In this document: one piece after another, positions 3,222 through 53,177 of the stretch
Layout of the letters: every line of letters begins with the position of its first letter
Numbering within the stretch: position 1 is the first letter of the stretch
NCBI GenBank assembly: GCA_039889305.1
Contig: JAVVFV010000002.1
Coordinates: 6,401-70,400, forward strand
Direction: 5' to 3'
Length of the DNA stretch: 64,000 bases
DNA from: Candidatus Zestomicrobium tamdykulense
Lineage (GTDB): Archaea > Thermoproteota > Thermoprotei_A > Sulfolobales > NBVN01
Program-made: the position numbers and the translations under genes
The notes under the pieces: generated by a model
What the model saw: the letters and a program-made list of their open reading frames with translations, nothing else
Databases searched by the model: none
What the model was told of the DNA's origin: nothing

Positions 3222-3231
3222 TAAGATCCCC

Positions 3232-3507
3232 CTAAGAACCTCTTACAGAATACTTCAACGCGATTGACAAGCAAGAAGGACAGAACACACCACCGAAAAT
3301 TCTTTCAGGCCTCTTAGAAGACTTAGCAACCTTCCTTAAGGAACCAGTAGATGTAGGAACCCCACCTAACCTACTACCACAAACCCCACACACAGCAACA
3401 TGAGGCTTAGATCTCCTGTAATGAATTACGGTCTTACCACCAGGCGTACGCCTCCAGACCCTCCTAAGCGACCTAGACCTCACTGAAGCACCCGACATAC
3501 GCTCCAA
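3232..3507 (-). CDS. rpl34e: 50S ribosomal protein L34e (eL34)
   Basis: RRTPGGKTVIHYRRSKPHVAVCGVCGSRLGGVP, with a zinc-ribbon-like CxxC. Confidence 0.9.
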   Translation of the reverse strand: MERMSGASVRSRSLRRVWRRTPGGKTVIHYRRSKPHVAVCGVCGSRLGGVPTSTGSLRKVAKSSKRPERIFGGVFCPSCLSIALKYSVRGS

Positions 3508-3588
3508 CCATAAACGTTACCATGATTAGCTAAAAAAGCTTTATAGCCTAACATCACACAAAACAGCGAAGCACTAACCACACAAGAA

Positions 3589-4065
3589 CTAAGCAACTCC
3601 CTCACTCCTAATCAGGTCTATGCCAGCAATCCTATTATGCAGTACCTGATAACCAACAAGAGTAGCTAAGAACACAAACAACTCATTCAAGAAGCCCTCA
3701 GAACTCGAGATCACGGGCAGGCTGAGAGGCGAAGGTATTGGCTTACCACCACCGTACGTCAGAACAAAAAACAAGTACATATACTCCGAAATAAGCATAG
3801 AAAAGAAAACACCACCCCACAAAACTAGTAAGTTAATTATGAAGAAGTTACTGAGCCTCCTCCTAAGCTTAGAAGCCCTCTCCTCAAGAATCTTAGCTTT
3901 CTTCTCCTGAGGTCTCAACCCCCTATACTCCTTCTCAATACTCCTCAACTCCCTAGCAACCTCAACCACCTTAAGCCTACTCAACCCTAACCAACCAACT
4001 AAGTAAGACCAGGGAAGCATAGCCACCAAAACACTCATCACGTACAACAAAGTAATCATTCTCAC
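3589..4065 (-). CDS. DUF106 / EMC3-TMCO1-like membrane protein (archaeal YidC/Oxa1-like insertase candidate)
   Basis: Architecture is TM1, then a basic coiled coil (EKEYRGLRPQEKKAKILEERASKLRRRL), then TM2 and TM3. It sits directly after adk in the secY-adk cluster, where DUF106 genes lie in many archaea. Confidence 0.55.
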   Translation of the reverse strand: MRMITLLYVMSVLVAMLPWSYLVGWLGLSRLKVVEVARELRSIEKEYRGLRPQEKKAKILEERASKLRRRLSNFFIINLLVLWGGVFFSMLISEYMYLFFVLTYGGGKPIPSPLSLPVISSSEGFLNELFVFLATLVGYQVLHNRIAGIDLIRSEGVA

Positions 4066-7795: not shown

Positions 7796-8403
7796 GCTTC
7801 CTCACCTGAAGAAAGTAAGTTAAGTATCTTCTCACGTACTTCCCTAAAGTGTTGAAGTAGGTTATGAGGATCAAGACCTCTCTTCAAGTATTCCCCGAAG
7901 TACCTCCTGAATAAGTCTTCGTTCTCGGAAGAAAGCTTCCTAGCATACTCCGCTATATGCTGACCCTCAATCCTCTCCTGAGAAGGTATAACCTCCTCAG
8001 ACACAGGAATCTGAACACCAGCATCCAGCAAACCCTTCATAGCAGCGAACACGCGAGCACCCTTAGACGCCTTATGAAGTCCTATATCAGGGATTACTTC
8101 CTTCACGTTCTTCTTGATTGCTAAGACTCCTGCTAGGAGTCCCGTCAAGTAAGCTGCTGACGTATTGTTTAAATCACCTAACCACCCGTACTTACGTAAA
8201 GACTTACTACTAACACCAACTACAGTCTCATCACCATTCACTGAAAACTTCACTATCTGAACAATTACCTGCGTATTAGTTTTTCTTATGACTGCCCTTA
8301 ACAACCTCCCTGACTTCACCATCCTGTAACGCTTGTAGTAGTTCGTCTTACCTTCTCTCCTTCTTCTGAAAGGAACCTTATATGTTGGTCCGCGACCCAA
8401 CAC
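7792..8403 (-). CDS. rpl18: 50S ribosomal protein L18 (uL18)
   Basis: [32 protein letters not shown]; 4-nt overlap with S5. Confidence 0.9.
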
Positions 8404-8855
8404 TACCTCACCTTAATACCTAATTCAGTTAAGTACCTCTTAAGATCTGAGAGGTTCCTGAACATACCTCCCTTAACCCGTAAGTACAGAGCTCTGTATG
8501 TCTTTCTATCAATTACTTCCTCATCCCTCAACCATCTCAAGTACTTCCTAAGCTTCCTGGCAATATAGACGTAGGCTTCCTCCGCATCACTCCTAGACTT
8601 CCTGCTACCCTTCCTCTTCCCGTAACCTCTCCTATGACCCTTCTTCCTCTTCTCGTGAAGTTCTCTCCACCTACCCCTAGAATTTCCTTTAGCTTGCTCA
8701 ACCCAAATAACACCGTTCTCAATCAACCTCCTAACATCTTCTTTAGTCAGCGCTGACTCCACATCCTCCACCCTAGTAGGATCTATCCTAATCCTAGACA
8801 CACCAACCCCAAGAATCTCAGCAGCTAGTCTTTTCTGCAGACTCAAATCACTCAT
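8403..8855 (-). CDS. rpl19e: 50S ribosomal protein L19e (eL19)
   Basis: LSLQKRLAAEILGVGVSRIRIDP with a basic middle region. Confidence 0.9.
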   Translation of the reverse strand: MSDLSLQKRLAAEILGVGVSRIRIDPTRVEDVESALTKEDVRRLIENGVIWVEQAKGNSRGRWRELHEKRKKGHRRGYGKRKGSRKSRSDAEEAYVYIARKLRKYLRWLRDEEVIDRKTYRALYLRVKGGMFRNLSDLKRYLTELGIKVR

Positions 8856-9238
8856 TGCTTCACACCCTCATTCGCAACCAACATACCTAACTCCTTAGCT
8901 TTATTGATTATCTCAGCTCTCTTACGCCTACCCACAGTCCTACCAACATAAACTATCACTTCCGAAGGATTCAGAGACTCAAGCTCCTTAACGTTATGCA
9001 CTACCACAGGCCTCAAACCCGACGGATGAAGCCCTCTCACCTCTCTAGGACTACCGAAACCTGACGAAGGTCTTGGAGGCATCCCCTTAAGCCTTAACCG
9101 CATAGGATTATCTATGCCTTTAGGTCTCCTCCACTTCAGATCATTAATGAACTTCCAGAACTTCCACCACTGATGCCTCAAGAACCTGATCTTCCGCTTA
9201 CTTCTCAATAACTTCAATTTCCTGCTAGCACTACTCAA
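8852..9238 (-). CDS. rpl32e: 50S ribosomal protein L32e (eL32)
   Basis: WWKFWKF..KWRRPKGIDNPMRLRLKG. Confidence 0.9.
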   Translation of the reverse strand: MSSASRKLKLLRSKRKIRFLRHQWWKFWKFINDLKWRRPKGIDNPMRLRLKGMPPRPSSGFGSPREVRGLHPSGLRPVVVHNVKELESLNPSEVIVYVGRTVGRRKRAEIINKAKELGMLVANEGVKQ

Positions 9239-17281: not shown

Positions 17282-17379
17282 TGGGCCCGCGGGGATTCGA
17301 ACCCCGGACCGCCCGGTTATGAATCCCGTAGGTCTCAACAACCTATGCCGGGCGCTCTACCTGGCTGAGCTACGGGCCC
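17282..17379 (-). tRNA. tRNA-Met (or Ile2) with anticodon CAT, carrying a 24-nt intron at a non-canonical position in the 5' side of the anticodon loop; CCA encoded (17279-17281)
   Basis: Folded by hand: GGGCCCG/CGGGCCC acceptor, GCTC/GAGC D-stem, CCCGG/CCGGG anticodon stem, CGGGG-TTCGAAT-CCCCG T-arm. Between the anticodon stem halves lie 31 nt, CATAGGTTGTTGAGACCTACGGGATTCATAA, which is the CTCATAA loop plus a 24-nt insert. Confidence 0.85.
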
Positions 17380-23492: not shown

Positions 23493-23608
23493 TCCCCCGG
23501 GAGGGATTCGAACCCCCGACCCCCCGGTTCCTGCCGGAGGGCGTATTAAGTTTCTGTACCCTCCGGGGCTGACTACAGCCGGGTGCTCTACCGCTGAGCT
23601 ACCGGGGG
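23493..23608 (-). tRNA. tRNA-Tyr (GTA) with a 44-nt canonical 37/38 intron (23529-23572); CCA encoded (23490-23492)
   Basis: C1-G72 acceptor pair (CCCCCGG/CCGGGGG), an archaeal Tyr identity element. Anticodon arm CCCGG-CTGTAG[intron]A-CCGGG. T-arm GGGGG-TTCGAAT-CCCTC. Confidence 0.9.
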
Positions 23609-28356: not shown

Positions 28357-29376
28357 GTGAATATTAAGTGGTGCAAGGAAGTGACTCATACTGAGTGCGA
28401 AAGCCTTAAACAAAGAGTACATAAATTTATTCGTGATGTTCGTGATGGTGCTGTATTAGGTCCTACGGAGGTTGCTATAGGCTCGTTAGAACTCATAAGA
28501 GATGCATCAAGCTTATGTAAGAACGAATTTAGGGAATTCCTAACTAATTTTATTCCTTTGGTGGTTGTTTCTAGACCACCTTCTCAGGTAGCTGAGAATA
28601 TACTTCGTAAGTATCTCGAGGAATTCATTAATTTGAAAACTGAGAAAGGGTTTGATAGAGCTGTAGATGAGTCACGAAGTATTATAAACTCATTAATTAA
28701 AGAACTCGAGTTAGTTAGGGATATGATAGCGGAGATAGGTTCTAGACGCATCGAGAACGGCGACACCATCTTAACACACTCCTACAGCACTACCGTACTA
28801 AAAACTCTTGAGAAAGCTGTTAAGAAAGGCGTTACTTTCAGAGTATACGTAACAGAGTCTAGACCTATAGGTGAGGGTAAAGTAACTGCCAGCACTCTAA
28901 GTAAGTTAGGGATTGAAACCACCCTAATCGTGGATTCAGCTGTTAGGTACGTAATGAAGCACGTGAATAAGGTGTTGGTCGGTGCTGATGCTATAGCAGT
29001 GAACGGTGCAGTAGTAAATAAGGTAGGTACTTCAGCAATAGCTCTGGCAGCTAAGGAAGCTAGGTCACGCTTATTTGTTTTAGCTGGAATATATAAGCTA
29101 TCTTTCGAAACAATCTTCGGTGAGTTAATAGAGCAAGTATTTCTTGATAACGCAGACCTAATCATACCTAAAGAAAAAATTCAGGAACTCCCAAGTAAGG
29201 TAAGAGTTAGTGTACCGCTCTTCGATGTCACACCACCAGAATACATAGACGCGATAATTACTGAGAGGGGGGTGTTAGCACCTCAAGCAATACCTGTTTT
29301 GGTTGCTAGTCTTTATGGATGGCCACCCAAGATTAAATCCTTAAGAGAGTTGCTGGAAGAGGTGAGCAGGAATTGA
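28357..29376 (+). CDS. eIF-2B alpha/beta/delta-family protein, divergent paralog
   Basis: The C-terminal two-thirds are colinear with the next gene (ILTHSYSTTV..YVTESRP..GADAIAVNGAVVNKVGT..FDVTPPEYIDAIITERG). The N-terminal RGA and RPTAVSL motifs are degenerate (RDGAVLGP; SRPPSQV). Confidence 0.7.
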   Translation: MNIKWCKEVTHTECESLKQRVHKFIRDVRDGAVLGPTEVAIGSLELIRDASSLCKNEFREFLTNFIPLVVVSRPPSQVAENILRKYLEEFINLKTEKGFDRAVDESRSIINSLIKELELVRDMIAEIGSRRIENGDTILTHSYSTTVLKTLEKAVKKGVTFRVYVTESRPIGEGKVTASTLSKLGIETTLIVDSAVRYVMKHVNKVLVGADAIAVNGAVVNKVGTSAIALAAKEARSRLFVLAGIYKLSFETIFGELIEQVFLDNADLIIPKEKIQELPSKVRVSVPLFDVTPPEYIDAIITERGVLAPQAIPVLVASLYGWPPKIKSLRELLEEVSRN

Positions 29377-30359
29377 ATCCAGAATATAAGCTCCCTAAAG
29401 AAGTAATAGAGATTCGTGAAGGAATTAGAAACATGAGTATAAGGGGTGCAGGAAGAATAGCTAAGTACGCAGTCCTAGCGCTAATGAAAGCTGCGGAAGA
29501 TTTTAAAGGAAACAAAGCACGTGATTTCCTCAAATACATGGAGTACGTGGGTTCATACTTAAGGAGTGCTAGACCAACAGCAGTCTCCCTACCTAACGCC
29601 ATAACGTACGTCCTAGCTAAACTAAAGAAACAAAGCATTACTTCAGTAGATGAAGGTAAACAAACAGTTATCAGCCTAGCTCAAGAATTCATGAAGAGAG
29701 CTGATGAAGCTCTTAAAACAATAGGTGAGCTCGGTTCTAGACGAATTGAGAACGGCGACATCATAATGACTCACTGCCACAGCACCGCAGCTGTCTCAGT
29801 AATAACTACCGCGTACAGAAGAGGAAAAATAAACGTTGTTTACGTTAAGGAAACACGCCCAGCATTCCAAGGATTAATCACTGCCAAAACCTTAGCAGAA
29901 GAAGGTCTTGATGTAATCGTAATACCTGACTCATCAGTAAGGTACTTCATGAAGAAAGTAGATAAGGTTGTGGTAGGAGCTGACACCGTAGCAGCTAATG
30001 GCGCGGTAGTCAATAAAATAGGGACGTCGTTAGTAGCTTTAGCAGCCAAAGAAGCAAGAGTTCGTTTCTACGTCGCTACAGAAACTTTTAAGTTCAGTCC
30101 TTACACGTTACTAGGAGAACTAGTTCCTATAGAAGTTAGGGATCCTAGAGAAGTAGTTGATGATGAGTGGCTAAAAGAAAACAAAAACGTAAAGATTTTT
30201 AACCCGGTCTTCGACGTCACACCACCAGAATACGTAGACGCAATAATTACTGAGAAAGGCGTAATACCTCCTCAAGCCGCACTACTAATACTAATTGAAG
30301 ACTACGGTGCTGATTTAAGAAGTGTGGAGGCAAGTACTACGATATCTTGGGAAGAATAA
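29373..30359 (+). CDS. eIF-2B-family protein, ribose-1,5-bisphosphate isomerase-like (e2b2 type)
   Basis: IRNMSIRGAGRIAKYA, SARPTAVSLPNAI, IMTHCHSTAA, ETRPAFQG, GADTVAANGAVVNKIGT and FDVTPPEYVDAIITEKG are very close to the Thermococcus R15P isomerase as I recall it. It has a 4-nt overlap with the upstream paralog. Confidence 0.75.
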   Translation: MNPEYKLPKEVIEIREGIRNMSIRGAGRIAKYAVLALMKAAEDFKGNKARDFLKYMEYVGSYLRSARPTAVSLPNAITYVLAKLKKQSITSVDEGKQTVISLAQEFMKRADEALKTIGELGSRRIENGDIIMTHCHSTAAVSVITTAYRRGKINVVYVKETRPAFQGLITAKTLAEEGLDVIVIPDSSVRYFMKKVDKVVVGADTVAANGAVVNKIGTSLVALAAKEARVRFYVATETFKFSPYTLLGELVPIEVRDPREVVDDEWLKENKNVKIFNPVFDVTPPEYVDAIITEKGVIPPQAALLILIEDYGADLRSVEASTTISWEE

Positions 30360-30383: not shown

Positions 30384-31415
30384 TCAGAGCACAACAGTTT
30401 TTATGTTTAGCTTACTTGATACATAATCCGCGAATACCCTGCCCTGAGAACTCCTCGCGTTATTAACTACGAGTAACCTAGGTCTTGAACGTTCTACGTA
30501 CTCCATTAAACCTTTAAAATCAGAGTGATCGCTGAAAGCTACTAGGTAGCTATTATTCCCGATCTGTCTGTAAGGTTTCGTGAATTCCCAACCACTAAGT
30601 GTTACGTGACTTGCTCTACTATTTTCTTTTAGTCTAGGATAACTTACTGAGTGGGTTAAGTAGACGTACCAACCACTCCTTATAATGTCTAAGCCTTCAC
30701 TAGAGTTTATGTGGAAATACTCACCAAACCTCATGCCATATTTTTCAGCGATTCTTGAGAGTGTGTACTGTTTATGACTAAGGACAAAAGGAGCTATGAC
30801 GCCGCGTTCACGCAGAATCTGCATTACTTCCTGAACCTTGCCGTAGTAAGCATAAAGATGGACAGGACCCTTACTAAGTAACTCATTAATTAAGTCAGCC
30901 AAGACCGTCTCAATAAATTCATCAAATTCCCTAACGTATGATGGATGCCCGTACACAGCATCCATGACTAATATGTCTGGCTGAATAACGTCAGTACCCC
31001 TACCCACCTTCTTGAAATCACTAGTGTAGCCGACGGTTGTGTTATCCTCATACTCAACCAATACTTGAGCTGTCCCAGGTATGTGTACAGCTTTCTTAAA
31101 AAGGATTTTAAGACCCCCCACCTTGTAAGATTGGTCGTAATCAAGCGGAAGAAACAATGATGAGTCATTAAATCCAGTCATTACAGAAAGCCACTCAAGA
31201 GTGAGTGGTGTTCCAACTATCTTCTGCCTACGTCTCACAGACTCAGCAAGCCTCACTACATGATCACTATGGACGTGAGTCACTATCCTATCTTGAAAAT
31301 CTTCATGCCCATCAATAACTATAGACTCATTAACTGATATACCGCCGTGCTCGTTCACCCTAATCAAAGCTCTCTGCAGAGTCGACTCAACACTCAATGA
31401 GTAAACCCCTGCCAA
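30384..31415 (-). CDS. MBL-fold metallo-hydrolase (small beta-CASP-like)
   Basis: HxHxDH motif THVHSDH, a later HIPG, and the C-terminal FSDHSD typical of beta-CASP motif C. Confidence 0.6.
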   Translation of the reverse strand: MAGVYSLSVESTLQRALIRVNEHGGISVNESIVIDGHEDFQDRIVTHVHSDHVVRLAESVRRRQKIVGTPLTLEWLSVMTGFNDSSLFLPLDYDQSYKVGGLKILFKKAVHIPGTAQVLVEYEDNTTVGYTSDFKKVGRGTDVIQPDILVMDAVYGHPSYVREFDEFIETVLADLINELLSKGPVHLYAYYGKVQEVMQILRERGVIAPFVLSHKQYTLSRIAEKYGMRFGEYFHINSSEGLDIIRSGWYVYLTHSVSYPRLKENSRASHVTLSGWEFTKPYRQIGNNSYLVAFSDHSDFKGLMEYVERSRPRLLVVNNARSSQGRVFADYVSSKLNIKTVVL

Positions 31416-31497: not shown

Positions 31498-32772
31498 CTA
31501 GATTAGTGTTTTATAATGAGTGAGTAGAACTTTCCTTAACTCCTCAATATCTGGGTTTATTGTTGGAGCATCACCAACTACTTCCCTCACTACGTCCGGA
31601 TCTTTTAGTCCGTGCCCAGTTATTAATACTACTATTTCTTCATCTCTATCTATAAGCTTTTCTTGGAGAGCTTTCATTAGTCCTGCTAGAGATGCAGCTC
31701 CTGAAGGCTCAGCAAATATTCCCTCAGTACTAGCTAGAGCCTTCATAGCCTCAACAATTAAAGAATCCTCAACTTCCTCCGCATTACCTTTAGTAACTTG
31801 AAGAGCTGTGAGTCCTGCATCACCATCCCAGGGGTATGGGTCCTCAAGACCCCAAGCTATTGTGTGTGGGCGGTCCCAAGGACGTATATTGAATGGGTCT
31901 TGCTTCTCTTTAAAAGCTCTGACGAACGGTGGATTACCTGTTGATTGCACAGCAAATAATCTCGGGTACTCGTTAATCAAGCCTAACTCCAGGTAGTCTC
32001 TAAACCCTTTCCAAACACCGGTCAGTAATGATGCAGCACCTACAGGAACAAACACCCAATCCGGTGTTCTCCAGCTCATTTGCTCAACTATCTCGTAAGA
32101 GATTGTTTTAGAGCCCTCAATCTGGTATGGATTGAAAGGACCGAAACTAGGTGACGGGAAGAACCCGAATTTCTCGTAAGCTAGCCTCATCATCTTGACT
32201 GTAGGGTCTTCCCTACCGAGACCCCTCACCCTAACTACCTTAGCTCCATAAAAGAGTAGCTGAGCTATCTTACTATAACTAGCTTGCTCTATAACGAAAG
32301 CATAAACCTCCATCCCAGTCCTCGCAGCATAAGCTGATAACGCGACCGCCGCATTACCTGATGAAGCAGTAACTAACTTTCTGTAACCGAATTCCTTAGC
32401 AACACTAACCGCAACCGACATACCACGATCTTTGTAGGAAGCTGTCGGGTTTCTGGTCTCGTCTTTAATCCATAAAGACTTAACACCAAGCTTCTCAGCA
32501 AGCCTCCGAGCCTTGATTAGGGGGGTAGCTCCCTCATTAAGTGTAACTATGTTCTCGCTGTTTTGAGGAGGTAATAAATCAAAATACTTCCACTGACTAG
32601 TTAGGGGCTTCCTATCAACATAATCCCTAGTATAGAAATTCTTGAGTGCCTCATAATCGTAATTTATGTCTAAACGACCTAAATCATCCCTTAAACATAG
32701 AGAGGGCTTATCCTCATACTTATAGACGGTGCCGCAACGAGAACACGTAAGATTTCTTATGTATTTCGACAT
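31498..32772 (-). CDS. thrC: Threonine synthase-family fold-type-II PLP enzyme with an N-terminal zinc ribbon
   Basis: CSRCGTVY, NEGATPL, NPTASYKDRG (PLP lysine context) and ASSGNAAVALSAYAA. Confidence 0.7.
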   Translation of the reverse strand: MSKYIRNLTCSRCGTVYKYEDKPSLCLRDDLGRLDINYDYEALKNFYTRDYVDRKPLTSQWKYFDLLPPQNSENIVTLNEGATPLIKARRLAEKLGVKSLWIKDETRNPTASYKDRGMSVAVSVAKEFGYRKLVTASSGNAAVALSAYAARTGMEVYAFVIEQASYSKIAQLLFYGAKVVRVRGLGREDPTVKMMRLAYEKFGFFPSPSFGPFNPYQIEGSKTISYEIVEQMSWRTPDWVFVPVGAASLLTGVWKGFRDYLELGLINEYPRLFAVQSTGNPPFVRAFKEKQDPFNIRPWDRPHTIAWGLEDPYPWDGDAGLTALQVTKGNAEEVEDSLIVEAMKALASTEGIFAEPSGAASLAGLMKALQEKLIDRDEEIVVLITGHGLKDPDVVREVVGDAPTINPDIEELRKVLLTHYKTLI

Positions 32773-32910: not shown

Positions 32911-34128
32911 CTATAACCAGTAGCTTGCTGGGAAGTGAATAGCTCTCGTAGGACATACTGTAGTGCAAACACCGCAACCATAACACTTACTAGTATCCAC
33001 AACAGCTACTCTGGTGTTACCTTTAGGAAGTACGTGAACAGCATCGTAAGTGCATGATTGCTCGCAAAGCCCGCAAGCAATGCACTTATCTTCTGAAACT
33101 ACCGGGTTCTTCACCTCATACCAGCCAGCTAACTCAGGCTTGAGGTGCTTTAACGCAATACCTTTAATATCTTCTATGCTTGAGTAGTCGTGTTCTCTCA
33201 ACCATTTAGCAACGCCATCAACTAACCTCCTAAATACTTGAGGGCCTTCTAGTATGGCTTGAGTACAGACCTGAACAGCCGTAGCACCAGCCATAACGTA
33301 CTCGATTACATCCTCAGGCTGGGAAATACCTCCTACACCAATTATTGGTAACTTACTTATCTTCGCTATCTCAGCCACTACAGCAACTCCAAGTGGTTTT
33401 ATAGCTGGTCCTGAGAGCCATCCGTGTCCGTTAGGTCCTCCCATAATAGGCTTCCCACTTTCTATGTCTATGTGTAGTGTAGGACCTATCGTGTTTATCG
33501 CTACTACGCCGTCAACACCTACCTTCTCAAGTTCTCTTATCATTTCTTTGAGACCTGTTAGGTGGGGACTCAACTTAGGGAATACTGGAACATCCACAAC
33601 CTCCTTCAGTGCTTTAGCTGACTCAACAACGGGTTTGTAATCGAAGCCTACGTAGTGAGTTGAGAACTCAATTCCTTGAGCACCAGCCTTCACAGCCTTA
33701 GGACCTAACTCTCTTAGTTCATGAGCCCAGTACCCTAAGCTAGCTATGAGCGGTATCCCGTGCTTCTCAGCAACTCTTCTAGCGTAAGGTAATTCAACAT
33801 TGAACCACTGTTCAGGTGGTAGATCAGACCAGAGCTCAGCATTCAAGAACCCGTAATACGCTCCCCTAACGTTCACTATTTTTGTTACTAGTTTCTCGTT
33901 CTCATACTTAGGCGATATTAACCCTATATACCCCCTATTAATGACACCCATATGAGGTCTCGGAACTTTAGCTGCTTTAATACCTATAGTCTTAGCTACT
34001 AAACCCCCCGCACCACCCTCAGCAAGCAACTCCATAGCCTTACCGTCTCTTGATATCGGGCATGCGGAGTTTAATATTGGGTTTCTGAACTTCAGACCAG
34101 CTATCTCAACAGATATTTCTACACTCAT
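32911..34128 (-). CDS. Dihydroorotate/dihydropyrimidine dehydrogenase-like flavoprotein with a C-terminal 2x[4Fe-4S] domain (PreA-like)
   Basis: N-terminal DHODH/DPD TIM-barrel string (GLKFRNPILNSACPIS.., GAQGIEFS, NTIGP, GGIS). The C-terminus carries CIACGLCEQSC and CYGCGVCTTVCP ferredoxin motifs. At 405 aa it matches the E. coli PreA size and layout. Confidence 0.7.
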   Translation of the reverse strand: MSVEISVEIAGLKFRNPILNSACPISRDGKAMELLAEGGAGGLVAKTIGIKAAKVPRPHMGVINRGYIGLISPKYENEKLVTKIVNVRGAYYGFLNAELWSDLPPEQWFNVELPYARRVAEKHGIPLIASLGYWAHELRELGPKAVKAGAQGIEFSTHYVGFDYKPVVESAKALKEVVDVPVFPKLSPHLTGLKEMIRELEKVGVDGVVAINTIGPTLHIDIESGKPIMGGPNGHGWLSGPAIKPLGVAVVAEIAKISKLPIIGVGGISQPEDVIEYVMAGATAVQVCTQAILEGPQVFRRLVDGVAKWLREHDYSSIEDIKGIALKHLKPELAGWYEVKNPVVSEDKCIACGLCEQSCTYDAVHVLPKGNTRVAVVDTSKCYGCGVCTTVCPTRAIHFPASYWL

Positions 34129-34146
34129 ACGACACCACCTAATAAA

Positions 34147-35607
34147 TTAGGGCTTAAGCCACTCAACCTTATACTTAACCTCCATCGAGAGCATCCTATC
34201 CCATAACCTGTTTATGACTTTCTCCGCATAATCAATAACCTTATCTAGATCAACATTCACTAAGCGCTTCTCTTTAGTGATCCACTTACCCCTAACTAAG
34301 ACTCCCCACACGTCCTTACCACTGAACGTATTGACTAAATGCCCGTACACGGTCCTCTCGTCAAGCGGTGTATGCGTGAACTCAGACACCAATATAGTTA
34401 TGTCAGCATCCTTACCTACCTCTATAGAACCTACCTTATCATCAACGTTGAGGGCTTTAGCAGCGTCGATAGTAGCCATCTCAACAACCTTAAGGGGACT
34501 CATTAATCTCGGGTCCTTATTCACTACCTTATGCACTAAGTATGTTGACCTCATATTCTCGAAAACATCCATCACGTACCCATCATTACCTATACCTACA
34601 GTCATCCCTAACGACAACATCTTAGGTATTGGAGGAACTCCAACCCCGTTTATCATGTTACTCATAGCATTATGCGCTATCTTGACATCATACTGCTTCA
34701 GTATCATTAATTCATCCTCAGTAACCTGAACACCGTGAATAGCTAGAAACCTAGGTGATAAGAACCCTATATCTCTCAACCTCTCTACGGGCCTCTTACC
34801 GTAACGCTCGATATTATGGTAAACATCAATAAGACCTTCCTCCAAGTGCATAGCGTATATAGTCCCGTACTTATCAGCTAATTCCTTTGTTTTAATCAAG
34901 ACATCATCAGTAACGGTGAAGGAAGCGTGTAGAGTGAAAACACCCTTAACGTTACTATCAGGATTACTGTGAGTCTTCCTAACAAACCTTTCGTTCTCAG
35001 CTATACCTTCATAACCCTCACTCAAGCTCCTCCTTTGAGTTACTGAGAAACCTGCGAAACCTCTCAAACCAACTTCAGTAACTCCCTTCTCCACATAATC
35101 TAGTGAATTCTGAGTTATGTTAGGAGCATCTAGTAAGTCCTTAAAGAAAGTAGTTCCGGTTCTAGCGAAAAGCATGGATCCTAGCAAAGCACTAACATAC
35201 ACGTCATCGTATGTGAGGGATTCATCAAGTGCCCACCAAATCCTCTGCAAATTTTGCTGGAAATCTGACGGTGCCTCAATCACGCCAAACCACGGCGAAC
35301 CTGTTAAGAGGAGCCCGTAAAAATGTGTATGCGTACACACGAAACCCGGAGTCACGACACTCCTCCTTAACTCTACATATTCCTCAGCAACATACTTACT
35401 CCTACCATCACCGAAACCAGCATCAATGATCTTACCATCCCTAACAGCAACAAAACCCCGCGGAATAACGTCTCTCTTGGGATTCATTGTAACTATCAAA
35501 GCGTTATTTACTAGTAAATCTACCTTCTCCAAGTAAAACACACCATCAGAATAACTCCCTAAGGTAGTTTTAAATAAGTGTTTATATGTTTCAAAGAAAA
35601 CTCTCAA
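34147..35607 (-). CDS. SsnA-like amidohydrolase (chlorohydrolase/aminohydrolase superfamily)
   Basis: Metal motif PGFVCTHTHFYG. LQRIWWALDESLTYDDVYVSALLGSMLFARTGTT and GLRG..AENERF match my recollection of the SsnA-specific LWWrLDraL..iYySAL block. Also has HLEE and GNDG. The true start may be an internal GTG/TTG near ..GVFYLEKV. Confidence 0.65.
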   Translation of the reverse strand: MRVFFETYKHLFKTTLGSYSDGVFYLEKVDLLVNNALIVTMNPKRDVIPRGFVAVRDGKIIDAGFGDGRSKYVAEEYVELRRSVVTPGFVCTHTHFYGLLLTGSPWFGVIEAPSDFQQNLQRIWWALDESLTYDDVYVSALLGSMLFARTGTTFFKDLLDAPNITQNSLDYVEKGVTEVGLRGFAGFSVTQRRSLSEGYEGIAENERFVRKTHSNPDSNVKGVFTLHASFTVTDDVLIKTKELADKYGTIYAMHLEEGLIDVYHNIERYGKRPVERLRDIGFLSPRFLAIHGVQVTEDELMILKQYDVKIAHNAMSNMINGVGVPPIPKMLSLGMTVGIGNDGYVMDVFENMRSTYLVHKVVNKDPRLMSPLKVVEMATIDAAKALNVDDKVGSIEVGKDADITILVSEFTHTPLDERTVYGHLVNTFSGKDVWGVLVRGKWITKEKRLVNVDLDKVIDYAEKVINRLWDRMLSMEVKYKVEWLKP

Positions 35608-35666
35608 GAACTTTAGTAAATGCTTAGCTTAAATATTTAGATTACTTACGAAAATAATTTAAACTA

Positions 35667-36629
35667 CTATATAGGCAATACTGTAGTTCCTGAGAAACCC
35701 TTAATTACCTCGTAACCATTATATAGGTGGCCTATCATAGCTTTCTTACCGCCGTTCTTTATGAATCTTACTGCTGCTAATACTTTAGGTCCCATAGAAC
35801 CTGGTGCGAAGTGTCCTTCCTTATAGTACTCCTCTAATTCAGACACCATTACTACATCTAGCTTCTTCTGATTCGGCTTACCGAAGTTTAAGTATACTCC
35901 ATCAACATCTGTCAGAATCACGAAGGTCCCTACACCGAGGGAAGTAGCTAGGACCTCACCAGCTAAATCTTTATCAATTACTGCCTCAACACCTTGTAAA
36001 GTGTTGTCGTCATTTCTAACTATAGGTATCCCGCCACCACCGGAAGCTACAACTATCCATCCATCATCAACTAGTCTTTTTATAGCAGCTACCTCTACGT
36101 TGCTAAATGGGTTAGGTGATGGAACTACTCTCCTGTACCCACCTCTAGGGTCAGGTTTGAAGATCCAGCCTTTCTCAGCAGCTAACTTCTTAGCTTCCTC
36201 CTCAGTATACCAACTCCCCACATACTTAGTAGGATTACTCCACGCTGGATCATCTCGCCGTACCTCAACCTGATTAACTATGGCTACAGCCCCCTTAACA
36301 GAGTCTCTAATACCTTCCCTCACTAACACGTTATTTATTGATTGAACTAGTAGGTAACCTAACCATCCTTGAGTCATAGCGCCAGCTATATCCATAGTTA
36401 AGGGAGGTATCCTATCCTTAGATCTCTCCATCCACTCCAATATAATACCTACTTGAGGCCCGTTCCCGTGAGTAACGACAACCTTATATCCTTCCTTAAC
36501 TATCCTCACGATAATTTCTGCAGCTCTGTAAGCGTTTTTCCAGTAGTCTTCAGGAGTTCCTTTATCTCCTTTAGACTGGAACGCGTTACCACCTAACGCA
36601 ATCAGTATGTATTTCTCGTCTCTAGCCAA
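35667..36629 (-). CDS. arcC: Carbamate kinase
   Basis: ILIALGGNAF, VVTHGNGPQVG and ASGGGGIP, with the amino-acid-kinase fold order. 320 aa. Confidence 0.9.
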   Translation of the reverse strand: MARDEKYILIALGGNAFQSKGDKGTPEDYWKNAYRAAEIIVRIVKEGYKVVVTHGNGPQVGIILEWMERSKDRIPPLTMDIAGAMTQGWLGYLLVQSINNVLVREGIRDSVKGAVAIVNQVEVRRDDPAWSNPTKYVGSWYTEEEAKKLAAEKGWIFKPDPRGGYRRVVPSPNPFSNVEVAAIKRLVDDGWIVVASGGGGIPIVRNDDNTLQGVEAVIDKDLAGEVLATSLGVGTFVILTDVDGVYLNFGKPNQKKLDVVMVSELEEYYKEGHFAPGSMGPKVLAAVRFIKNGGKKAMIGHLYNGYEVIKGFSGTTVLPI

Positions 36630-36643
36630 CTACTCATAACACC

Positions 36644-37735
36644 TCATTCGTACCTGCTTCCCATAACCATAGCCATTACTGCTTTTTGTACATGAAGCCT
36701 ATTCTCTGCTTCCTCAAAGTAAAGTGATTTCTCGTAAGTGTCTAGTACCTCATCAGTTACTTCTTGTCCTCTGTCTGCCGGCCCGCAGTGCATGTAGTAC
36801 GGTTTTCCTGACTCTTCTAGAAGATCCATCGTTACTATCCAGTTCTTGAATTTGTTTTGATACTCCATAGCTTCCTCCTTACGTACTTTGCCGTCAGGAC
36901 TGTATGGTGGGAAGAATCCTTTAGGACTCCAAGCCTTCGGATACACGAACGTAGCACCCTCGAAAGCCTCCTTCATGTCGTAAGTTACCTTAACAGAACC
37001 TCCGTAACGGTCAGCCAACTCCCTAACCTTCTGCATTATGTTATCCATTAACTCAAATCCTGGTGGGTGAGCAATCCAGACCTCAGCACCCATCATAGCA
37101 GCCATAATAGCAACGTCTTGAGGAACAGCCAAAGGCTTAAGACCGCCGGAATACGCGTAAGAGACAACAAACTTCTTACCTCTTAAATTAGGTACTACGT
37201 CTAAAGCAGCCTTAATATCGGCTAGAGACTGGAACGGGTGGAATATGTCGTCCTCCATGTTAAGAACAGGTATGGTAGCCCACTTAGCAAACTCCTCAAT
37301 AACTCTGTGCCCCCTACCAATAATCCACTTAGCAGCATCAGCGTAAATTCTTATAGCTATACCGTTCCCGTACCTACTCAAAACCCTAGCAACATCACTT
37401 ATTGCTTCAGTCTTGTAAGGCTCCATGTCCTCAGGAAGTGTTGGTGTGTAGACGTCTTGAGGGCTCAGGAAATGAGCGTGACCACCCAACTGAGACATAC
37501 CCGCCTCAAAACTATTCCTAGTTCTTAAAGACCTATTATAGAATAACATGAAGAGTGTCTGACCCTGCAGGTAAGGTGTCGGGACCTTAGCCTTAAACTT
37601 CCTCTCCAAATCTTTCGCAGCCTCAATAATCAACTTTATGTCTTCTTGAGTCCTCTCTAGATTAGAAAGATAGTCCTGACCCTCCCAAATACCCACATAC
37701 CAGGGCTTACCCACGTACATCACCACATGACTCAT
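36644..37735 (-). CDS. Non-canonical (YgeW-like) carbamoyltransferase B
   Basis: The carbamoyl-phosphate motif is altered to SLRTR. Has HPFQSLAD, YAYSGGLKPLAVPQ, VYPKAWSP, KNWIVT and YMHCGPADRGQEV in place of HCLP. No DxxxSMG ornithine motif. Confidence 0.7.
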   Translation of the reverse strand: MSHVVMYVGKPWYVGIWEGQDYLSNLERTQEDIKLIIEAAKDLERKFKAKVPTPYLQGQTLFMLFYNRSLRTRNSFEAGMSQLGGHAHFLSPQDVYTPTLPEDMEPYKTEAISDVARVLSRYGNGIAIRIYADAAKWIIGRGHRVIEEFAKWATIPVLNMEDDIFHPFQSLADIKAALDVVPNLRGKKFVVSYAYSGGLKPLAVPQDVAIMAAMMGAEVWIAHPPGFELMDNIMQKVRELADRYGGSVKVTYDMKEAFEGATFVYPKAWSPKGFFPPYSPDGKVRKEEAMEYQNKFKNWIVTMDLLEESGKPYYMHCGPADRGQEVTDEVLDTYEKSLYFEEAENRLHVQKAVMAMVMGSRYE

Positions 37736-37839
37736 TAGTAATATTATCTTTTTAAACTTAGCTCCATTTATTCTAATAAAACGTTATTTTCATTAAGTAA
37801 ATAAAATTAATGTGGTTTTATACGAGTCTTAATTAAACG

Positions 37840-38874
37840 TTATTTGAGCCCAGCCATCGTGAGAGCTAAGACTGCCATCTTAGTCCATAAACCGTTTTCT
37901 GCTTGCTCGTAGAGAACAGACCTCGGACTATCAACTACTTCGTCATCAGCTTCAGCATTCCTGAAGATAGGCATAACATGCATTAAAACCCCGGACTTAT
38001 CCATGAGACTCATCAATTCTTTAGTGACTCTCCAGTCCTTGAATTTCTCGTAATTCTTTAGTTCTTCTTGACCATACTTACTATAACCTAACTCCTGAAG
38101 AGTTCTTGAAGCCCAGTTCCTCGGGAATACTGCGTGAGCCCCCCTCAAAGCCTCCCTGTAATCATTACTGAACTCAAGAACTGAACCTGAGTTCTTGGCG
38201 TTCTCCTTAGCCTGATCAACGATGTCAGGGAATAAATCGTAGCCAGGCGGATACACTACTGTGACGTCAACACCCATCCTAGTAAACATTATGAGATCCT
38301 CGTTAATACTGCAAGGACCCCTAACAACAGGAGAGTAAGCCCACATTATAACGTACTTCTTACCTCGAGGATTAGGGAATAATTCCTCGAAAGTCATGTA
38401 GTCTGCTAAAGCCTGTGTTGGGTGGAATTGATCATCGGCCATGTTAATCACAGGTATTTTAACGTGTTTAGCTACCTCACGTATTAACTGATTCCCCGCA
38501 CCATGCTTGTAATCTATAGCTTTATCAAGTATTCTTATACCTAAGCCGTGACCGTACCTCTCATACATCGTAGCAACGTCTTTAACTGCCTCACCCTCAC
38601 CAATACGTGTTTCCTGAGCTCCTATATACTGTGCGTGACCACCTAAGTAAGTCATACCAGCCTCGAAAGCTGCTCTAGTTCTTGTTGAACCAGCAAAGAA
38701 CAACATAAAGAAAGTTTTTCTTTCTAGAATAGGTGGTATTTTGCTCACACCGTAATAATGAGCAACCCACTTAAACTCCTTAGCGAGATTTAACGCTATC
38801 CTTAACTCATCAATACTCCACTCCTGAGTTGTTATTAAGTCTTTACCTGTTAACTCATAAACCAGGTTCCTCAA
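37840..38874 (-). CDS. Non-canonical (YgeW-like) carbamoyltransferase A
   Basis: STRTR, HPTQALAD, MWAYSPVVRGP, VFPRNWAS, KDWRVT and HVMP in place of HCLP. No DxxxSMG (OTC) and no ATCase-type Asp-binding motifs. Confidence 0.7.
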   Translation of the reverse strand: MRNLVYELTGKDLITTQEWSIDELRIALNLAKEFKWVAHYYGVSKIPPILERKTFFMLFFAGSTRTRAAFEAGMTYLGGHAQYIGAQETRIGEGEAVKDVATMYERYGHGLGIRILDKAIDYKHGAGNQLIREVAKHVKIPVINMADDQFHPTQALADYMTFEELFPNPRGKKYVIMWAYSPVVRGPCSINEDLIMFTRMGVDVTVVYPPGYDLFPDIVDQAKENAKNSGSVLEFSNDYREALRGAHAVFPRNWASRTLQELGYSKYGQEELKNYEKFKDWRVTKELMSLMDKSGVLMHVMPIFRNAEADDEVVDSPRSVLYEQAENGLWTKMAVLALTMAGLK

Positions 38875-39000: not shown

Positions 39001-39507
39001 TTAACGCGTAGATCCCTGAGATAACACCCTGTTTTTTAGTCTTATGTACGTACTGCGTAGATCTTCAGGCATTACCTTAGTTCCAGCAATTACAGGCATG
39101 AAGTTAGTATCTCCTAACCATCTAGGAACCACGTGCACGTGAATATGTGACTCAATCCCTGCTCCAGCAACCCTACCCATATTTATTCCTATGTTGTAGC
39201 CCTGCGGGCCGTACTCTTGATCAATAGCCTTAATAACTCTGAAAAGAACATCAAACAAATCTAGAACCTCCTCATTCGTTAGTTGCTCAACCCTAGCAAC
39301 ATGCCTGACTGGCGCAATCATTACGTGCGCGGTGTTGTACGGGAATATATTAAGCATAGCGATGCTGTGTCTAGACCTCACCACGACGTAATTCTCGTCA
39401 TCACTGCCTCTAACAGCTTTACAGAATATACACTCCTCCGAAGAACCCTTAACTATGTAACTCATTCTCCAAGGAGCCCACAAAACCCTTAAATTTCGCC
39501 CACACAT
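39001..39507 (-). CDS. HIT-family nucleotide hydrolase/transferase
   Basis: Histidine triad HIHVHVVPR, preceded by CIFC and NIGINMG. Confidence 0.8.
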   Translation of the reverse strand: MCGRNLRVLWAPWRMSYIVKGSSEECIFCKAVRGSDDENYVVVRSRHSIAMLNIFPYNTAHVMIAPVRHVARVEQLTNEEVLDLFDVLFRVIKAIDQEYGPQGYNIGINMGRVAGAGIESHIHVHVVPRWLGDTNFMPVIAGTKVMPEDLRSTYIRLKNRVLSQGSTR

Positions 39508-43456: not shown

Positions 43457-43582
43457 GGGCCCGTAGCTCAGCTAGGCAGAGCGGCGGGCTCCAGTCCTCT
43501 ACGGGTCTACGGACCGAAAGGGATGATAGAAGAACTCCAGGGTGAGACCCGTAGGTCGGGGGTTCAAGTCCCCCCGGGCCCA
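43457..43582 (+). tRNA. tRNA-Trp (CCA) with a 52-nt intron at 37/38 (43495-43546); CCA encoded (43583-43585)
   Basis: GGGCCCG/CGGGCCC acceptor, anticodon arm GCGGG-CTCCAG[intron]A-CCCGT, T-arm GGGGG-TTCAAGT-CCCCC. Confidence 0.85.
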
Positions 43583-52082: not shown

Positions 52083-53177
52083 ATGAAGTTGATAGAACCT
52101 GAATTCCTTGAAACACTCTACAAAATAAGAACTGTTGGTAAGTATCAGATAGTTAAAGAACTAGCTAAGATATTAGGTGAAGACGTTAGATCAGTACTTT
52201 ATAAAATAAACATATTACTGAAAGGTAAGTATTTTAAGTTCTCAATCGATTACTCGTTAAGTGAGTTAGGTCTTAAACTATTAGTCATAATAACTAATAA
52301 GAATCTTATAAGGGAGGAGTCCACAACTAAGTTTATGAAGTTCGTTAAAGCAATAGCTTATGTTTTTCCTAATAAACATTTCTACTCTCTCTACATGCCC
52401 TTAAATATGCAGGAATTACCACAACCACTAAAGATTGATAACGAAACTGTAGTAATAGAACTTCATGAAAGATTAAGAAATAAGACCTCCTTCACGACTT
52501 ACAGTATAGAATCGGTATTTTCTCCTGAAAAGGGATTTAGCAAGGAATCTTTTAACAAGTTAGAAGGAACTATAAAAAATGCAATTAGTAATCTAGATAG
52601 AAGGAAGGTTTATATTGAAGATGAAGAAAAGATTACGTTTGATGCGATAGATTTGGGTATTATTAAGGAATTAGAGAAGAATGCGTTTGTTAAGCAGGTT
52701 GATATAGCTAGAGCTTTAGGGATTTCTATAGGTAAGCTTAGGAGGCACGCTAAGCTGCATGTGCCTTATTTAATTAAGGGTATCAGGTTGATGGACATGC
52801 CTCTATACCCTGAAGCTTTAGAGACCTCATTATTTGTATTGATCAAGTCTAGTAGTCCAAATATTGTCAGAAGTTTGTGTGAGGCTTTAGTAACTCATCC
52901 TACGGTGGTTTCTTGTGCTCACAGGAATGATGTTGGTTTAGGTATGGTTCAATTTGTTATTCCTTTCTCTATGGTTCAGTTTGTTGTTGAGTTTCTTGAG
53001 AAGGTTGGTTTAGAGTATGGTTTTGAGGTTTCTAGGGATATGTTATGGCTTGCTAATATTGAATTTAGTAGGAGGTTTACTTTGCCTTATAAGCGGTGGG
53101 AGGAGTATGTTCCTAAGATGTCTTGGAATATTGATGAGTTGAGGAGGTTTTTCAGTGGTTTCGGAGAGACGAGTTAG
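52083..53177 (+). CDS. Protein with two tandem Lrp/AsnC-like wHTH modules (putative transcription regulator)
   Basis: Module 1: YQIVKELAKILGEDVRSVLYKINILL. Module 2: DAIDLGIIKELEKNAFVKQVDIARALGISIGKLRRHAKL. Each is followed by a beta-rich segment. No closer family was recognised. Confidence 0.45.
   Translation: MKLIEPEFLETLYKIRTVGKYQIVKELAKILGEDVRSVLYKINILLKGKYFKFSIDYSLSELGLKLLVIITNKNLIREESTTKFMKFVKAIAYVFPNKHFYSLYMPLNMQELPQPLKIDNETVVIELHERLRNKTSFTTYSIESVFSPEKGFSKESFNKLEGTIKNAISNLDRRKVYIEDEEKITFDAIDLGIIKELEKNAFVKQVDIARALGISIGKLRRHAKLHVPYLIKGIRLMDMPLYPEALETSLFVLIKSSSPNIVRSLCEALVTHPTVVSCAHRNDVGLGMVQFVIPFSMVQFVVEFLEKVGLEYGFEVSRDMLWLANIEFSRRFTLPYKRWEEYVPKMSWNIDELRRFFSGFGETS

Follow-up and report, generated by a model that had tools for sequence, protein, structure and literature searches.

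A conserved archaeal gene module as a candidate core of reductive purine degradation in Candidatus Zestomicrobium tamdykulense

The locus and its genes

The window analyzed here, a 64,000-nt stretch of contig JAVVFV010000002.1 from the archaeon Candidatus Zestomicrobium tamdykulense, contains a module of five minus-strand genes for two carbamoyltransferases (CT1 and CT2), a carbamate kinase (CK), an amidohydrolase (AH) and a reductase (DPD), next to which lies a threonine synthase (ThrC)-like gene for a pyridoxal phosphate-dependent enzyme (PLP). An earlier note, made from the DNA sequence alone, had suggested that the five genes could be a compact archaeal pathway fermenting a nucleobase or another cyclic ureide. 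With a probability of about 0.6, we read the module as the core genes of a reductive pathway for the degradation of purines (2,8-dioxopurine, uric acid) in an archaeal version. The features are listed below; lengths of CT1, CT2, CK, DPD and the longest AH reading frame are from the six-frame list of open reading frames (ORFs).

37840-38874, minus strand: CT1, carbamoyltransferase (344 aa)
36644-37735, minus strand: CT2, second carbamoyltransferase (363 aa)
36630-36643, minus strand: CT2-CK junction, 14 bp; a Shine-Dalgarno-like GAGGTG overlaps the stop codon of CT2
35667-36629, minus strand: CK, carbamate kinase (320 aa)
34147-35532, minus strand: AH, SsnA-like metal-dependent hydrolase of the deaminase type, with a likely TTG start at 35532
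34147-35607, minus strand: longest ORF of AH (486 aa)
34129-34146, minus strand: AH-DPD junction, 18 bp, with a Shine-Dalgarno-like AGGTGGTG
32911-34128, minus strand: DPD, predicted UacX-family flavin reductase (405 aa)
31498-32772, minus strand: PLP, predicted ThrC-family enzyme with a Cys-rich N-terminal extension (PRK08197 match; absent from the earlier note)

All five module ORFs are intact, with gaps of 104, 14, 59 and 18 bp between the longest ORFs from CT1 to DPD, just as the earlier note had described them, and Pfam and NCBIfam agree with the product classes it gave for all five domain contents. The GC content of the five genes (0.42–0.44) equals that of the flanking DNA. Since the AH homologues measure 460–462 aa, the real start of AH is most likely the TTG codon at 35532, which makes the CK-AH gap 134 bp, not 59 bp. 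At both the CT2-CK and the AH-DPD junctions a Shine-Dalgarno-like GGTG sits just 5' of the next start codon, and the presence of such motifs in junctions of 14 and 18 bp suggests translational coupling at the two sites. The CT1-CT2, CK-AH and DPD-PLP gaps (104, 134 and 138 bp) are AT-rich and, read by eye, contain TATA-like boxes and T-runs. The promoter and terminator scan, being of bacterial design, was uninformative for an archaeon and returned fewer matches than shuffled sequence.

Assignment of the reductase to the UacX family

DPD consists of a DHO_dh barrel and two [4Fe-4S] motifs (Pfam) without an FAD/NAD(P)H domain, so the barrel and paired clusters reported in the earlier note stand. 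The same note had called the protein PreA/DPD-like and pointed out that PreA-type proteins reduce pyrimidine rings; our comparisons do not support a PreA-like pyrimidine enzyme. The best curated model of DPD in NCBIfam is indeed PreA, at 197 bits against a cut-off of 335, and the PyrD model gives 128 of the required 330 bits, which rules out PyrD. Sequence identity of DPD is 44% with the proteins that occupy the UacX position in the uricolytic clusters of Desnuesiella massiliensis and Eubacterium multiforme, against 27–29% with PreA. It shares with these clostridial proteins the loop E(L/F)STHYVG (EFSTHYVG in DPD) and the same 8- and 4-residue deletions relative to the PreA catalytic loop, and the catalytic-Cys loop of PreA (FSCPQ...G.M) is missing. 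From the 44% identity, the common STHY loop and the same deletions, we assign DPD to the UacX family; together with the score below the cut-off, the missing Cys loop and the low identity exclude PreA. In this comparison the clostridial proteins served as stand-ins for C. difficile UacX (Q181U4); the bacterial family members were retrieved by an exhaustive representative search followed by a profile search.

The genomic setting of the stand-ins is that of purine breakdown. The D. massiliensis cluster comprises a sigma-54 regulator, a YgeX-like PALP protein, an M20 hydrolase, a 527-aa Amidohydro_3 protein (UacY-like), a 442-aa SsnA-type amidohydrolase, a purine permease, the DPD-family reductase, a HyuA-type amidohydrolase, xanthine dehydrogenase (XDH) and RidA. 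The E. multiforme cluster is made up of the same genes, except that it has a YgeW with 66% identity to the E. coli protein; across the two clusters, SsnA, HyuA, XDH, YgeY, YgeX and a purine permease are joined by either YgeW or a UacY-like hydrolase. The architecture of DPD and the cluster position of the clostridial proteins match those described for C. difficile UacX (PMC12507026), a ferredoxin-type reductase that equates to the 'X1' dehydrogenases of Barba et al. 2013 (PMC4016543).

The identity of the reductase bears directly on an alternative in which the module carries out reductive pyrimidine catabolism. Here DPD would reduce uracil or thymine, AH would open the dihydropyrimidine, and the two transferases would phosphorolyse N-carbamoyl-beta-alanine and N-carbamoyl-beta-aminoisobutyrate, feeding CK. 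The PreA model as best curated match, the fold of DPD, which is that of dihydropyrimidine and dihydroorotate dehydrogenases, and the presence of two transferases that could match the two pyrimidine-derived ureido acids all speak for it, as does the fact that the AMP phosphorylase of the archaeal nucleotide shunt also frees pyrimidine bases. We nevertheless regard it as improbable, because DPD lacks the PreA catalytic Cys loop and groups with the UacX-position proteins of purine clusters, because AH is of the deaminase type and not a dihydropyrimidinase, and because it is hard to see what a fold-type II PLP enzyme would do with beta-alanine. The gene context discussed below points the same way.

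The hydrolase as a sister paralogue of SsnA

The best models of AH are both SsnA models and both are missed: in listing order, 326.8 against 444 bits (PRK07203) and 307.7 against 455.5 bits (TIGR03314). AH contains four SsnA-specific blocks, LWWxLD..L..E..Y.S.L, HAxFTVxD, ENxRF and HNxxSNMxNxVG, which also occur in E. coli and Hadarchaeal SsnA and are missing from DadD-like and GuaD proteins; the first of them holds the WW.LD..L..Y.S.L block that the earlier note had pointed out. The metal ligands HxH, HxxE and D are intact, as in SsnA. AH is 34% identical to true archaeal SsnA, 29–31% to bacterial SsnA and, by tblastn, 30% to E. coli SsnA, whereas true archaeal and clostridial SsnAs are 48% identical to each other; AH is therefore a sister paralogue of SsnA, not an orthologue. 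The earlier expectation that the enzyme falls with SsnA and not with GuaD thus stands for the shared blocks but not for the SsnA cut-offs.

Two unusual transferases and a carbamate kinase

CT1 and CT2 each carry the Pfam domains OTCace_N and OTCace and are 38% identical to each other. Both retain the carbamoyl-phosphate motifs S-x-R-T-R, H-P-x-Q and H-x-x-P...R (STRTR, HPTQ and HVMP..FRNAE in CT1; SLRTR, HPFQ and HCGP..DRGQE in CT2, which also has the Pro-rich loop LKPLAVPQ), and the ornithine motif DxxxSMG was not found in either. Every NCBIfam cut-off was failed. CT1 scored 204.5/288 bits for acetylornithine carbamoyltransferase (AOTCase), 199/281 for ornithine carbamoyltransferase (OTCase) and 127/263 for aspartate carbamoyltransferase (ATCase), and CT2 239.6/288 for AOTCase and 212/306 for OTCase. 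Taken together, the two proteins reached 80–127 bits with ATCase models against cut-offs of 237–263, and 199–212 bits with OTCase models against cut-offs of 281–306. The YgeW models TIGR03316 and NF005538 were failed by a wide distance (CT1 146/453 and 135/500; CT2 132/453 and 131/500 bits). Identity to YgeW is 33–34% for CT1 and 27–29% for CT2 (30% and 27% to E. coli YgeW by tblastn), and identity to true OTCase is 32–36%. Both proteins align gap-free to AOTCase (3m5c as the reference for CT2) through two insertions, including the region of the Pro-rich loop, that are missing in OTCase.

In a neighbour-joining tree with few reference sequences, in which E. coli PyrB was both the outgroup and the sole ATCase, CT1 and CT2 each formed an archaeal clade of their own outside the OTCase clade. 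The CT1 clade had a bootstrap value of 97% and adjoined E. coli YgeW with only 46% support; CT2 adjoined AOTCase. We did not rely on bootstrap values for the CT2 clade, since a rooted tree was compared with unrooted replicates. The AlphaFold2 model of CT1 (pLDDT 93.9) matched AOTCase, OTCase and a YgeW homologue in Foldseek with TMq values of 0.87, 0.85 and 0.85, which gave no separation of knotted from unknotted transcarbamylases. Judged by sequence, CT1 and CT2 appear to represent two archaeal clades in the wider AOTCase/YgeW group, and are neither OTCase, ATCase nor YgeW proper. The earlier expectation that the pair falls with YgeW is not borne out by the YgeW models, while the note's description of OTC-superfamily transferases lacking the ornithine motif, and its expectation that they would not group with the biosynthetic enzymes, are upheld by the missing motif, the failed cut-offs and the tree.

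A further argument comes from Thermogladius, where a separate bona fide OTCase (405–427 bits against cut-offs of 281–306) adjoins CT2, so that CT2 itself is not OTCase. With this co-occurrence, the profile scores, the motifs and the tree, a role of CT1 and CT2 as the OTCase or ATCase of the organism is ruled out. The Thermogladius OTCase lies at 2884–3828 on the minus strand of locus L036, divergently upstream of the run of genes from CT2 through CK and AH to DPD, with CK at 7929–8996; one carbamate kinase may serve several catabolic transferases there, with citrulline among the substrates.

CK passes the arcC cut-off (TIGR00746, residues 6–318, 371 against 358.25 bits) and is 42.7% identical to E. 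coli YqeA. It is thus predicted to be a bona fide carbamate kinase that converts carbamoyl phosphate and ADP to ATP and carbamate, in line with the canonical kinase of the earlier note.

The kinase could in principle run in the other direction. In an anabolic cluster, CK would make carbamoyl phosphate, and the transferases, AH and DPD would build a carbamoylated product, e.g., by a non-canonical route of the pyrimidine or arginine type. In type, the enzymes do parallel those of UMP synthesis, where carbamoyl phosphate has to be supplied and a transcarbamylase, an amidohydrolase that forms the ring and a flavoprotein of the dihydroorotate dehydrogenase kind take part, and locus L041 of a relative holds a CTP synthase between DPD and AH. 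We consider this very unlikely given the transferase scores and their position outside the OTCase clade, the nature of AH and DPD, which are not a dihydroorotase-type cyclic amidohydrolase and not PyrD, the presence of the same gene families in bacterial catabolic purine clusters, and the separate true OTCase of Thermogladius.

CT1 homologues are widespread in Desulfurococcales and Bathyarchaeia under the database label 'ornithine carbamoyltransferase'. AH homologues are listed as 'amidohydrolase' or 'cytosine/adenosine deaminase-related', and UacX-family proteins as '4Fe-4S binding protein', 'dihydroorotate dehydrogenase' or even 'diguanylate cyclase'. The public names of all three are probably wrong or uninformative.

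Conservation of the module in other archaea

The organism, a hot-spring archaeon, is Zestosphaera-like and belongs with the Desulfurococcales. The closest AH homologue (93% identical) comes from Zestosphaera metagenome-assembled genomes (MAGs), whose contigs are collinear with the window from RadA through the IF-2B-family genes, and the AH family fills the Desulfurococcales. Scanning a genome collection with an AH profile gave 80 loci, which were annotated by tblastn within ~10 kb of AH and are counted below; some of the gene absences reflect short contigs.

Zestosphaera lineage (AH at least 61% identical), 23 loci: DPD 23, CK 21, PLP 20, ribose-1,5-bisphosphate isomerase family 18, CT1 17, CT2 17; XDH, cyclic amidohydrolase, YgeY and adenine deaminase 0
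Other Desulfurococcales and relatives (AH 49–58%), 35 loci: DPD 18, CK 14, CT2 11, adenine deaminase 9, AH2 (DadD-like hydrolase) 8, CT1 5, CysK-like 4, XDH 3, cyclic amidohydrolase 3, YgeY 2, PLP 2
Distant lineages (AH below 49%), 22 loci: DPD 14, cyclic amidohydrolase 14, true SsnA 6, true PreA 3, CT1 3, CT2 2, CK 2

Of 66 loci with enough sequence around AH, 51 have DPD on the same strand and no more than 800 bp downstream, across Desulfurococcales, Hadarchaeota, Bathyarchaeia and Hodarchaeaceae. An adjacency kept this often is more than chance. At least five gene orders bring CT1, CT2 and CK together with AH or DPD:

Zestosphaera lineage: CT1, CT2, CK, AH, DPD, PLP
L032 and L055: CT2, AH, DPD, then CT1 on the opposite strand
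Thermogladius: CT2, two genes, CK, one gene, AH, DPD
Ca. Hecatella L064: CK, hydantoinase, CT1, CT2, then AH
Bathyarchaeota contig L073: CT2, CT1, CysK-like, AH

Repeated reshuffling of genes with their retention is a classical sign of a functional link, and we take the retained but reordered genes of the module to be linked in this way. The conservation of the neighbourhood that the earlier note had left to be checked is therefore borne out.

The genes that join the module in relatives point to purines. A hydantoinase or cyclic amidohydrolase stands beside it in 17 loci. In L029, its neighbours to one side are a cyclic amidohydrolase, an adenine deaminase and a DadD-like hydrolase; to the other side lie a CysK-like and a ThrC-like PLP enzyme and an M20 hydrolase that passes the YgeY-family cut-off (349.8 against 321 bits). 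L049 contains AH, DPD, the CysK-like and ThrC-like enzymes and YgeY again, and then RuBisCO. A three-subunit XDH-family molybdenum hydroxylase with XdhA and PucD as best models occurs in L032, L041 and L055, in L041 together with the maturation factor XdhC, and nucleoside-type ABC transporters occur in L045 and L090, the latter set including a Bmp binding protein. Adenine deaminase, XDH and YgeY in this context indicate purines and count against the pyrimidine alternative.

So does the separate occurrence of true PreA. Ca. Hecatella L064 carries a PreT-PreA pair, along with a D-hydantoinase/dihydropyrimidinase that is bona fide by its score (476 against 393 bits). In Hadarchaeota, a cyclic amidohydrolase of the dihydroorotase/allantoinase/hydantoinase group stands divergently beside AH-DPD (not visible in L078), a bona fide SsnA (572 against 444 bits in L077) lies directly downstream of AH-DPD on the opposite strand, and contigs that are long enough also hold a bona fide PreA (466 against 335 bits; L077 and L084) and a PreT/GltD-like protein (L071 and L077). 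Hadarchaeota and Hecatella thus have a true PreA beside the module as a protein distinct from DPD, accompanied by a PreT-type partner on contigs long enough to show it.

Two side observations concern these loci. The Hadarchaeal contigs contain two adjoining paralogous reductase-hydrolase systems (L077 8326–16785; also L071, L072, L074, L078 and L084). In the Zestosphaera MAG GCA_038894715.1 (L001 7714–8892), the CT2 orthologue is split into ORFs of 305 and 54 aa by a frameshift or an assembly error; we favor sequence errors, since the IF-2B and tRNA-synthetase genes of this MAG are split as well.

The ThrC-like enzyme and the nucleotide shunt

The PLP protein passes the threonine synthase cut-offs (PRK08197, 324.9 against 303 bits; TIGR00260, 201 against 167 bits), gives 240 bits with the threonine synthase 2zsj, and is only 23% identical to YgeX; it is assigned to the ThrC family. 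Its orthologues accompany module genes in three further arrangements, beside YgeY in L029 and L049, beside PreT-PreA in L064 and beside CT1 in L090. The gene probably belongs to the module, and from this recurrent placement alone we infer that the enzyme could release pyruvate from a C3 diamino or ureido acid.

Beyond PLP, two plus-strand genes converge on the module:

29373-30359, plus strand: ribose-1,5-bisphosphate isomerase, bona fide (394.5 against 314 bits)
28357-30359, plus strand: tandem pair of the IF-2B family, whose first gene is a sub-threshold isomerase paralogue (238.7 bits)

The isomerase gene is two genes downstream of PLP on the opposite strand, and the IF-2B pair stays beside the module in 18 of the 23 close relatives. 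This neighbourhood links the proposed base catabolism to the archaeal nucleotide shunt. The RuBisCO large subunit (presumably type III) that adjoins YgeY in L049 is a second such contact. A published metabolic reconstruction of a close relative reported amino acid auxotrophy and incomplete biosynthesis of purines and pyrimidines, uracil excepted, as well as nucleoside ABC uptake systems (PMC11467010). Taken together, the isomerase next door, the RuBisCO of L049 and the auxotrophies and nucleoside uptake of the relative suggest a fermentation of nucleosides or nucleotides in which ribose is consumed via the bisphosphate shunt and the purine base via the module.

Between the PLP and isomerase genes lies a minus-strand gene (30384-31415, 343 aa) that is syntenic in close relatives only. 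Its product is weakly metallo-beta-lactamase/beta-CASP-like (ligase-associated exonuclease 79/325 bits; RMMBL sub-threshold in Pfam).

A proposed archaeal pathway of purine degradation

The bacterial reductive purine pathway was solved biochemically in 2025 (PMC12507026; bioRxiv 10.1101/2025.04.24.650524), and this supersedes the gene neighbourhood by which the earlier note knew the bacterial counterpart. In its steps 1 to 3, an XDH-type enzyme yields 2,8-dioxopurine, YgfK or UacX reduces this compound, and SsnA opens the pyrimidine ring; in step 4, HyuA opens the hydantoin to 2,3-diureidopropionate (PMC12507026; bioRxiv 10.1101/2025.04.24.650524). The conversion of 2,8-dioxopurine to ureidomethylhydantoin by C. 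difficile UacX and SsnA has been measured (PMC12507026). In step 5, YgeW with YqeA turns one ureido group into ATP (bioRxiv 10.1101/2025.04.24.650524), and in steps 6 and 7, YgeY hydrolyses the other ureido group and YgeX forms pyruvate (PMC12507026; bioRxiv 10.1101/2025.04.24.650524).

Gene identities, family placement and conserved context are described above; the scheme that follows, with its substrates, step order, electron donor and the shares of CT1 and CT2, is our proposal. DPD, probably with low-potential electrons from ferredoxin, would dearomatise the dioxopurine, and AH, probably coupled to it in translation, would hydrolyse the reduced ring, pulling the unfavourable reduction forward (steps 2 and 3). 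A hydantoinase-type enzyme encoded outside the window would open the second ring to give a product with two ureido groups. CT1 and CT2, proposed to take one ureido group each, would cleave these with phosphate to carbamoyl phosphate, which CK would turn into ATP (step 5). The C3 diamino acid left over would probably be split to pyruvate and ammonia by the ThrC-like enzyme, which may correspond to step 7. The module would thereby dispose of bases freed by the archaeal nucleotide shunt.

Several findings support the purine pathway. DPD groups with the UacX family, whose activity together with SsnA is measured in C. difficile, and AH has the signature blocks and metal ligands of SsnA. AH and DPD are adjacent across lineages, the transferases and kinase recur with them, and adenine deaminase, XDH, hydantoinases or cyclic amidohydrolases, YgeY and Bmp transporters appear in relatives. 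CK is a bona fide kinase by its score, CT2 is not OTCase, and the nucleotide shunt is encoded nearby. The order of ring reduction, hydrolytic opening, phosphorolytic carbamoyl transfer and ATP formation given in the earlier note is supported by this comparative evidence. Its archaeal nucleobase fermentation likewise gains from the purine context, but not as a complete compact pathway, since the hydantoinase and the molybdenum hydroxylase are missing from the window.

Several points weigh against the purine pathway. No XDH-type hydroxylase, hydantoinase or YgeY was found in the 64-kb window or within 10 kb in the 23 close relatives (nor was an adenine deaminase in the latter, within ~10 kb of AH), so that the pathway is incomplete in cis and the five genes alone are not the whole of it. 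AH fails the SsnA cut-offs and a true SsnA co-occurs in Hadarchaeota, and the substrate of AH may therefore differ; CT1 and CT2 in turn fail the YgeW models. The TATA-like boxes in the AT-rich gaps mean that the module may be transcribed as several units. L029 holds YgeY plus both transferases, which weakens the idea of one transferase per ureido group. Finally, a Bathyarchaeia locus, L090, has CT1, CT2, CK and PLP together but not AH-DPD, and CT1 occurs alone in Desulfurococcus amylolyticus.

The last observations raise the question of whether two separate modules adjoin here, with AH and DPD opening an N-heterocycle and CT1, CT2, CK and PLP catabolising another ureido compound, one that AH-DPD does not make and that could be citrulline-like or another carbamoylated amino acid from peptides or nucleosides. 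L090 combines CT1, CT2, CK, the ThrC-like and a CysK-like enzyme with a DadD-like hydrolase and has no AH-DPD within 10 kb of CT1, the lone CT1 of D. amylolyticus stands beside a peptide ABC transporter, AH of D. mucosus has no transferases or DPD nearby, and TATA-like boxes lie in the 134-bp CK-AH gap. We judge this division unlikely on three counts: the transferase genes adjoin AH or DPD in lineages far apart and in five gene orders, the separate contexts are also tied to nucleosides and purines via the Bmp transporter and adenine deaminase, and the homologous bacterial pathway joins exactly these enzyme types.

Within the purine pathway, the presence of two transferases and one kinase and the absence of YgeY in cis suggest that both ureido groups could be conserved as ATP. 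A tentative form of the proposal is thus a fully phosphorolytic purine fermentation in which CT1 and CT2 act on one ureido group each, two ATP are gained per purine, and a recruited ThrC-like lyase takes the C3 remnant to pyruvate; we hold this complete version to be possible rather than probable.

Relation to known systems

The closest known system is the clostridial UacX variant (C. difficile, Desnuesiella, Eubacterium multiforme). The archaeal module shares with it a UacX-type reductase that has the STHY loop and lacks an NAD(P)H module, the position of the reductase directly beside an SsnA-type hydrolase, the proposed ATP formation via carbamoyltransferase and carbamate kinase and, in the loci of relatives, hydantoinase-like enzymes, YgeY, XDH and purine uptake genes. 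It differs in that its hydrolase is a paralogue failing the SsnA cut-offs, that two non-YgeW transferases replace the single YgeW or the hydrolytic UacY, that a ThrC-like enzyme (in relatives also a CysK-like one) replaces YgeX, that XDH, HyuA and YgeY are absent in cis in this lineage, and that the host is a hyperthermophilic archaeon with the module linked to ribose-1,5-bisphosphate isomerase.

The E. coli purine pathway has in common with the proposed one the reduction, the ring opening of the SsnA type, the phosphorolysis of a ureido group and carbamate kinase. Where the archaeon has a UacX-type enzyme, the reductase of E. coli is YgfK, a large protein that depends on NAD(P)H, and only one ureido group is kept as ATP there because YgeY hydrolyses the other. 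The reductive pyrimidine pathway (PreA/PreT or PydA, dihydropyrimidinase, beta-ureidopropionase) is similar in flavin-dependent ring reduction, hydrolytic opening and carbamoyl removal, and in the barrel and C-terminal ferredoxin domain that DPD shares with PreA. It is unlike the module in that DPD has neither the Cys loop nor a PreT partner, the hydrolase is of the deaminase type, and the ureido group would be phosphorolysed, not hydrolysed. Catabolic transferase-kinase pairs (arginine deiminase, agmatine, the ureidoglycine carbamoyltransferase of Rubrobacter) also perform ureido-derived substrate-level phosphorylation from tightly adjacent genes, but the archaeal transferases fall outside the OTCase, putrescine carbamoyltransferase and pseudo-ATCase families and number two per kinase.

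Our literature search for an archaeal counterpart of the pathway found none, in agreement with the earlier note, which knew of no described example, and archaea are unmentioned in the 2025 study of the bacterial pathway (PMC12507026). The kind of system is known from bacteria, and four proteins set the archaeal version apart. If the proposal is true, a purine pathway solved only in 2025, and for gut bacteria only, reaches hyperthermophilic and subsurface archaea among the Desulfurococcales, Bathyarchaeia, Hadarchaeota and Asgard relatives. It would bring new candidate enzymes, among them the SsnA paralogue, transcarbamylases from two clades that have yet to be characterised and a ThrC-like enzyme placed among catabolic genes, and hints at a higher ATP yield per purine, two against one in bacteria if both ureido groups are phosphorolysed. 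In that fully phosphorolytic case, hyperthermophilic archaea would gain an energy-yielding fate for the bases from the nucleotide (pentose bisphosphate) shunt. The module is also a candidate answer to what becomes of the bases from the route of AMP phosphorylase, ribose-1,5-bisphosphate isomerase and RuBisCO, and thermostable versions of its enzymes could serve work on urate degradation.

Other features of the window

With E. coli and archaeal queries, tblastn over the 64-kb window returned no XDH, HyuA-type hydantoinase or other cyclic amidohydrolase, and no YgeY, YgeX, PreT, adenine deaminase or purine permease; the earlier note had likewise placed XDH, hydantoinase, YgeY and PreT outside the window. 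Directly upstream of CT1 on the same strand lies a HIT-family gene (39001-39507, minus strand), whose best model is ATP adenylyltransferase (Ap4A phosphorylase-like; 156/290 bits). As it is syntenic in the Zestosphaera lineage only, we excluded it from the module.

Matches to tRNA of 98–126 nt were found by Rfam and missed by ARAGORN at the following sites, which are presumably intron-containing archaeal tRNA genes:

17282-17379, minus strand
23493-23608, minus strand
43457-43582, plus strand

The segment 52001-54000 has the lowest GC content of the window (0.346) together with a positive GC skew and carries a 364-aa ORF (52083-53177) without an NCBIfam match; it could be foreign or fast-evolving DNA.

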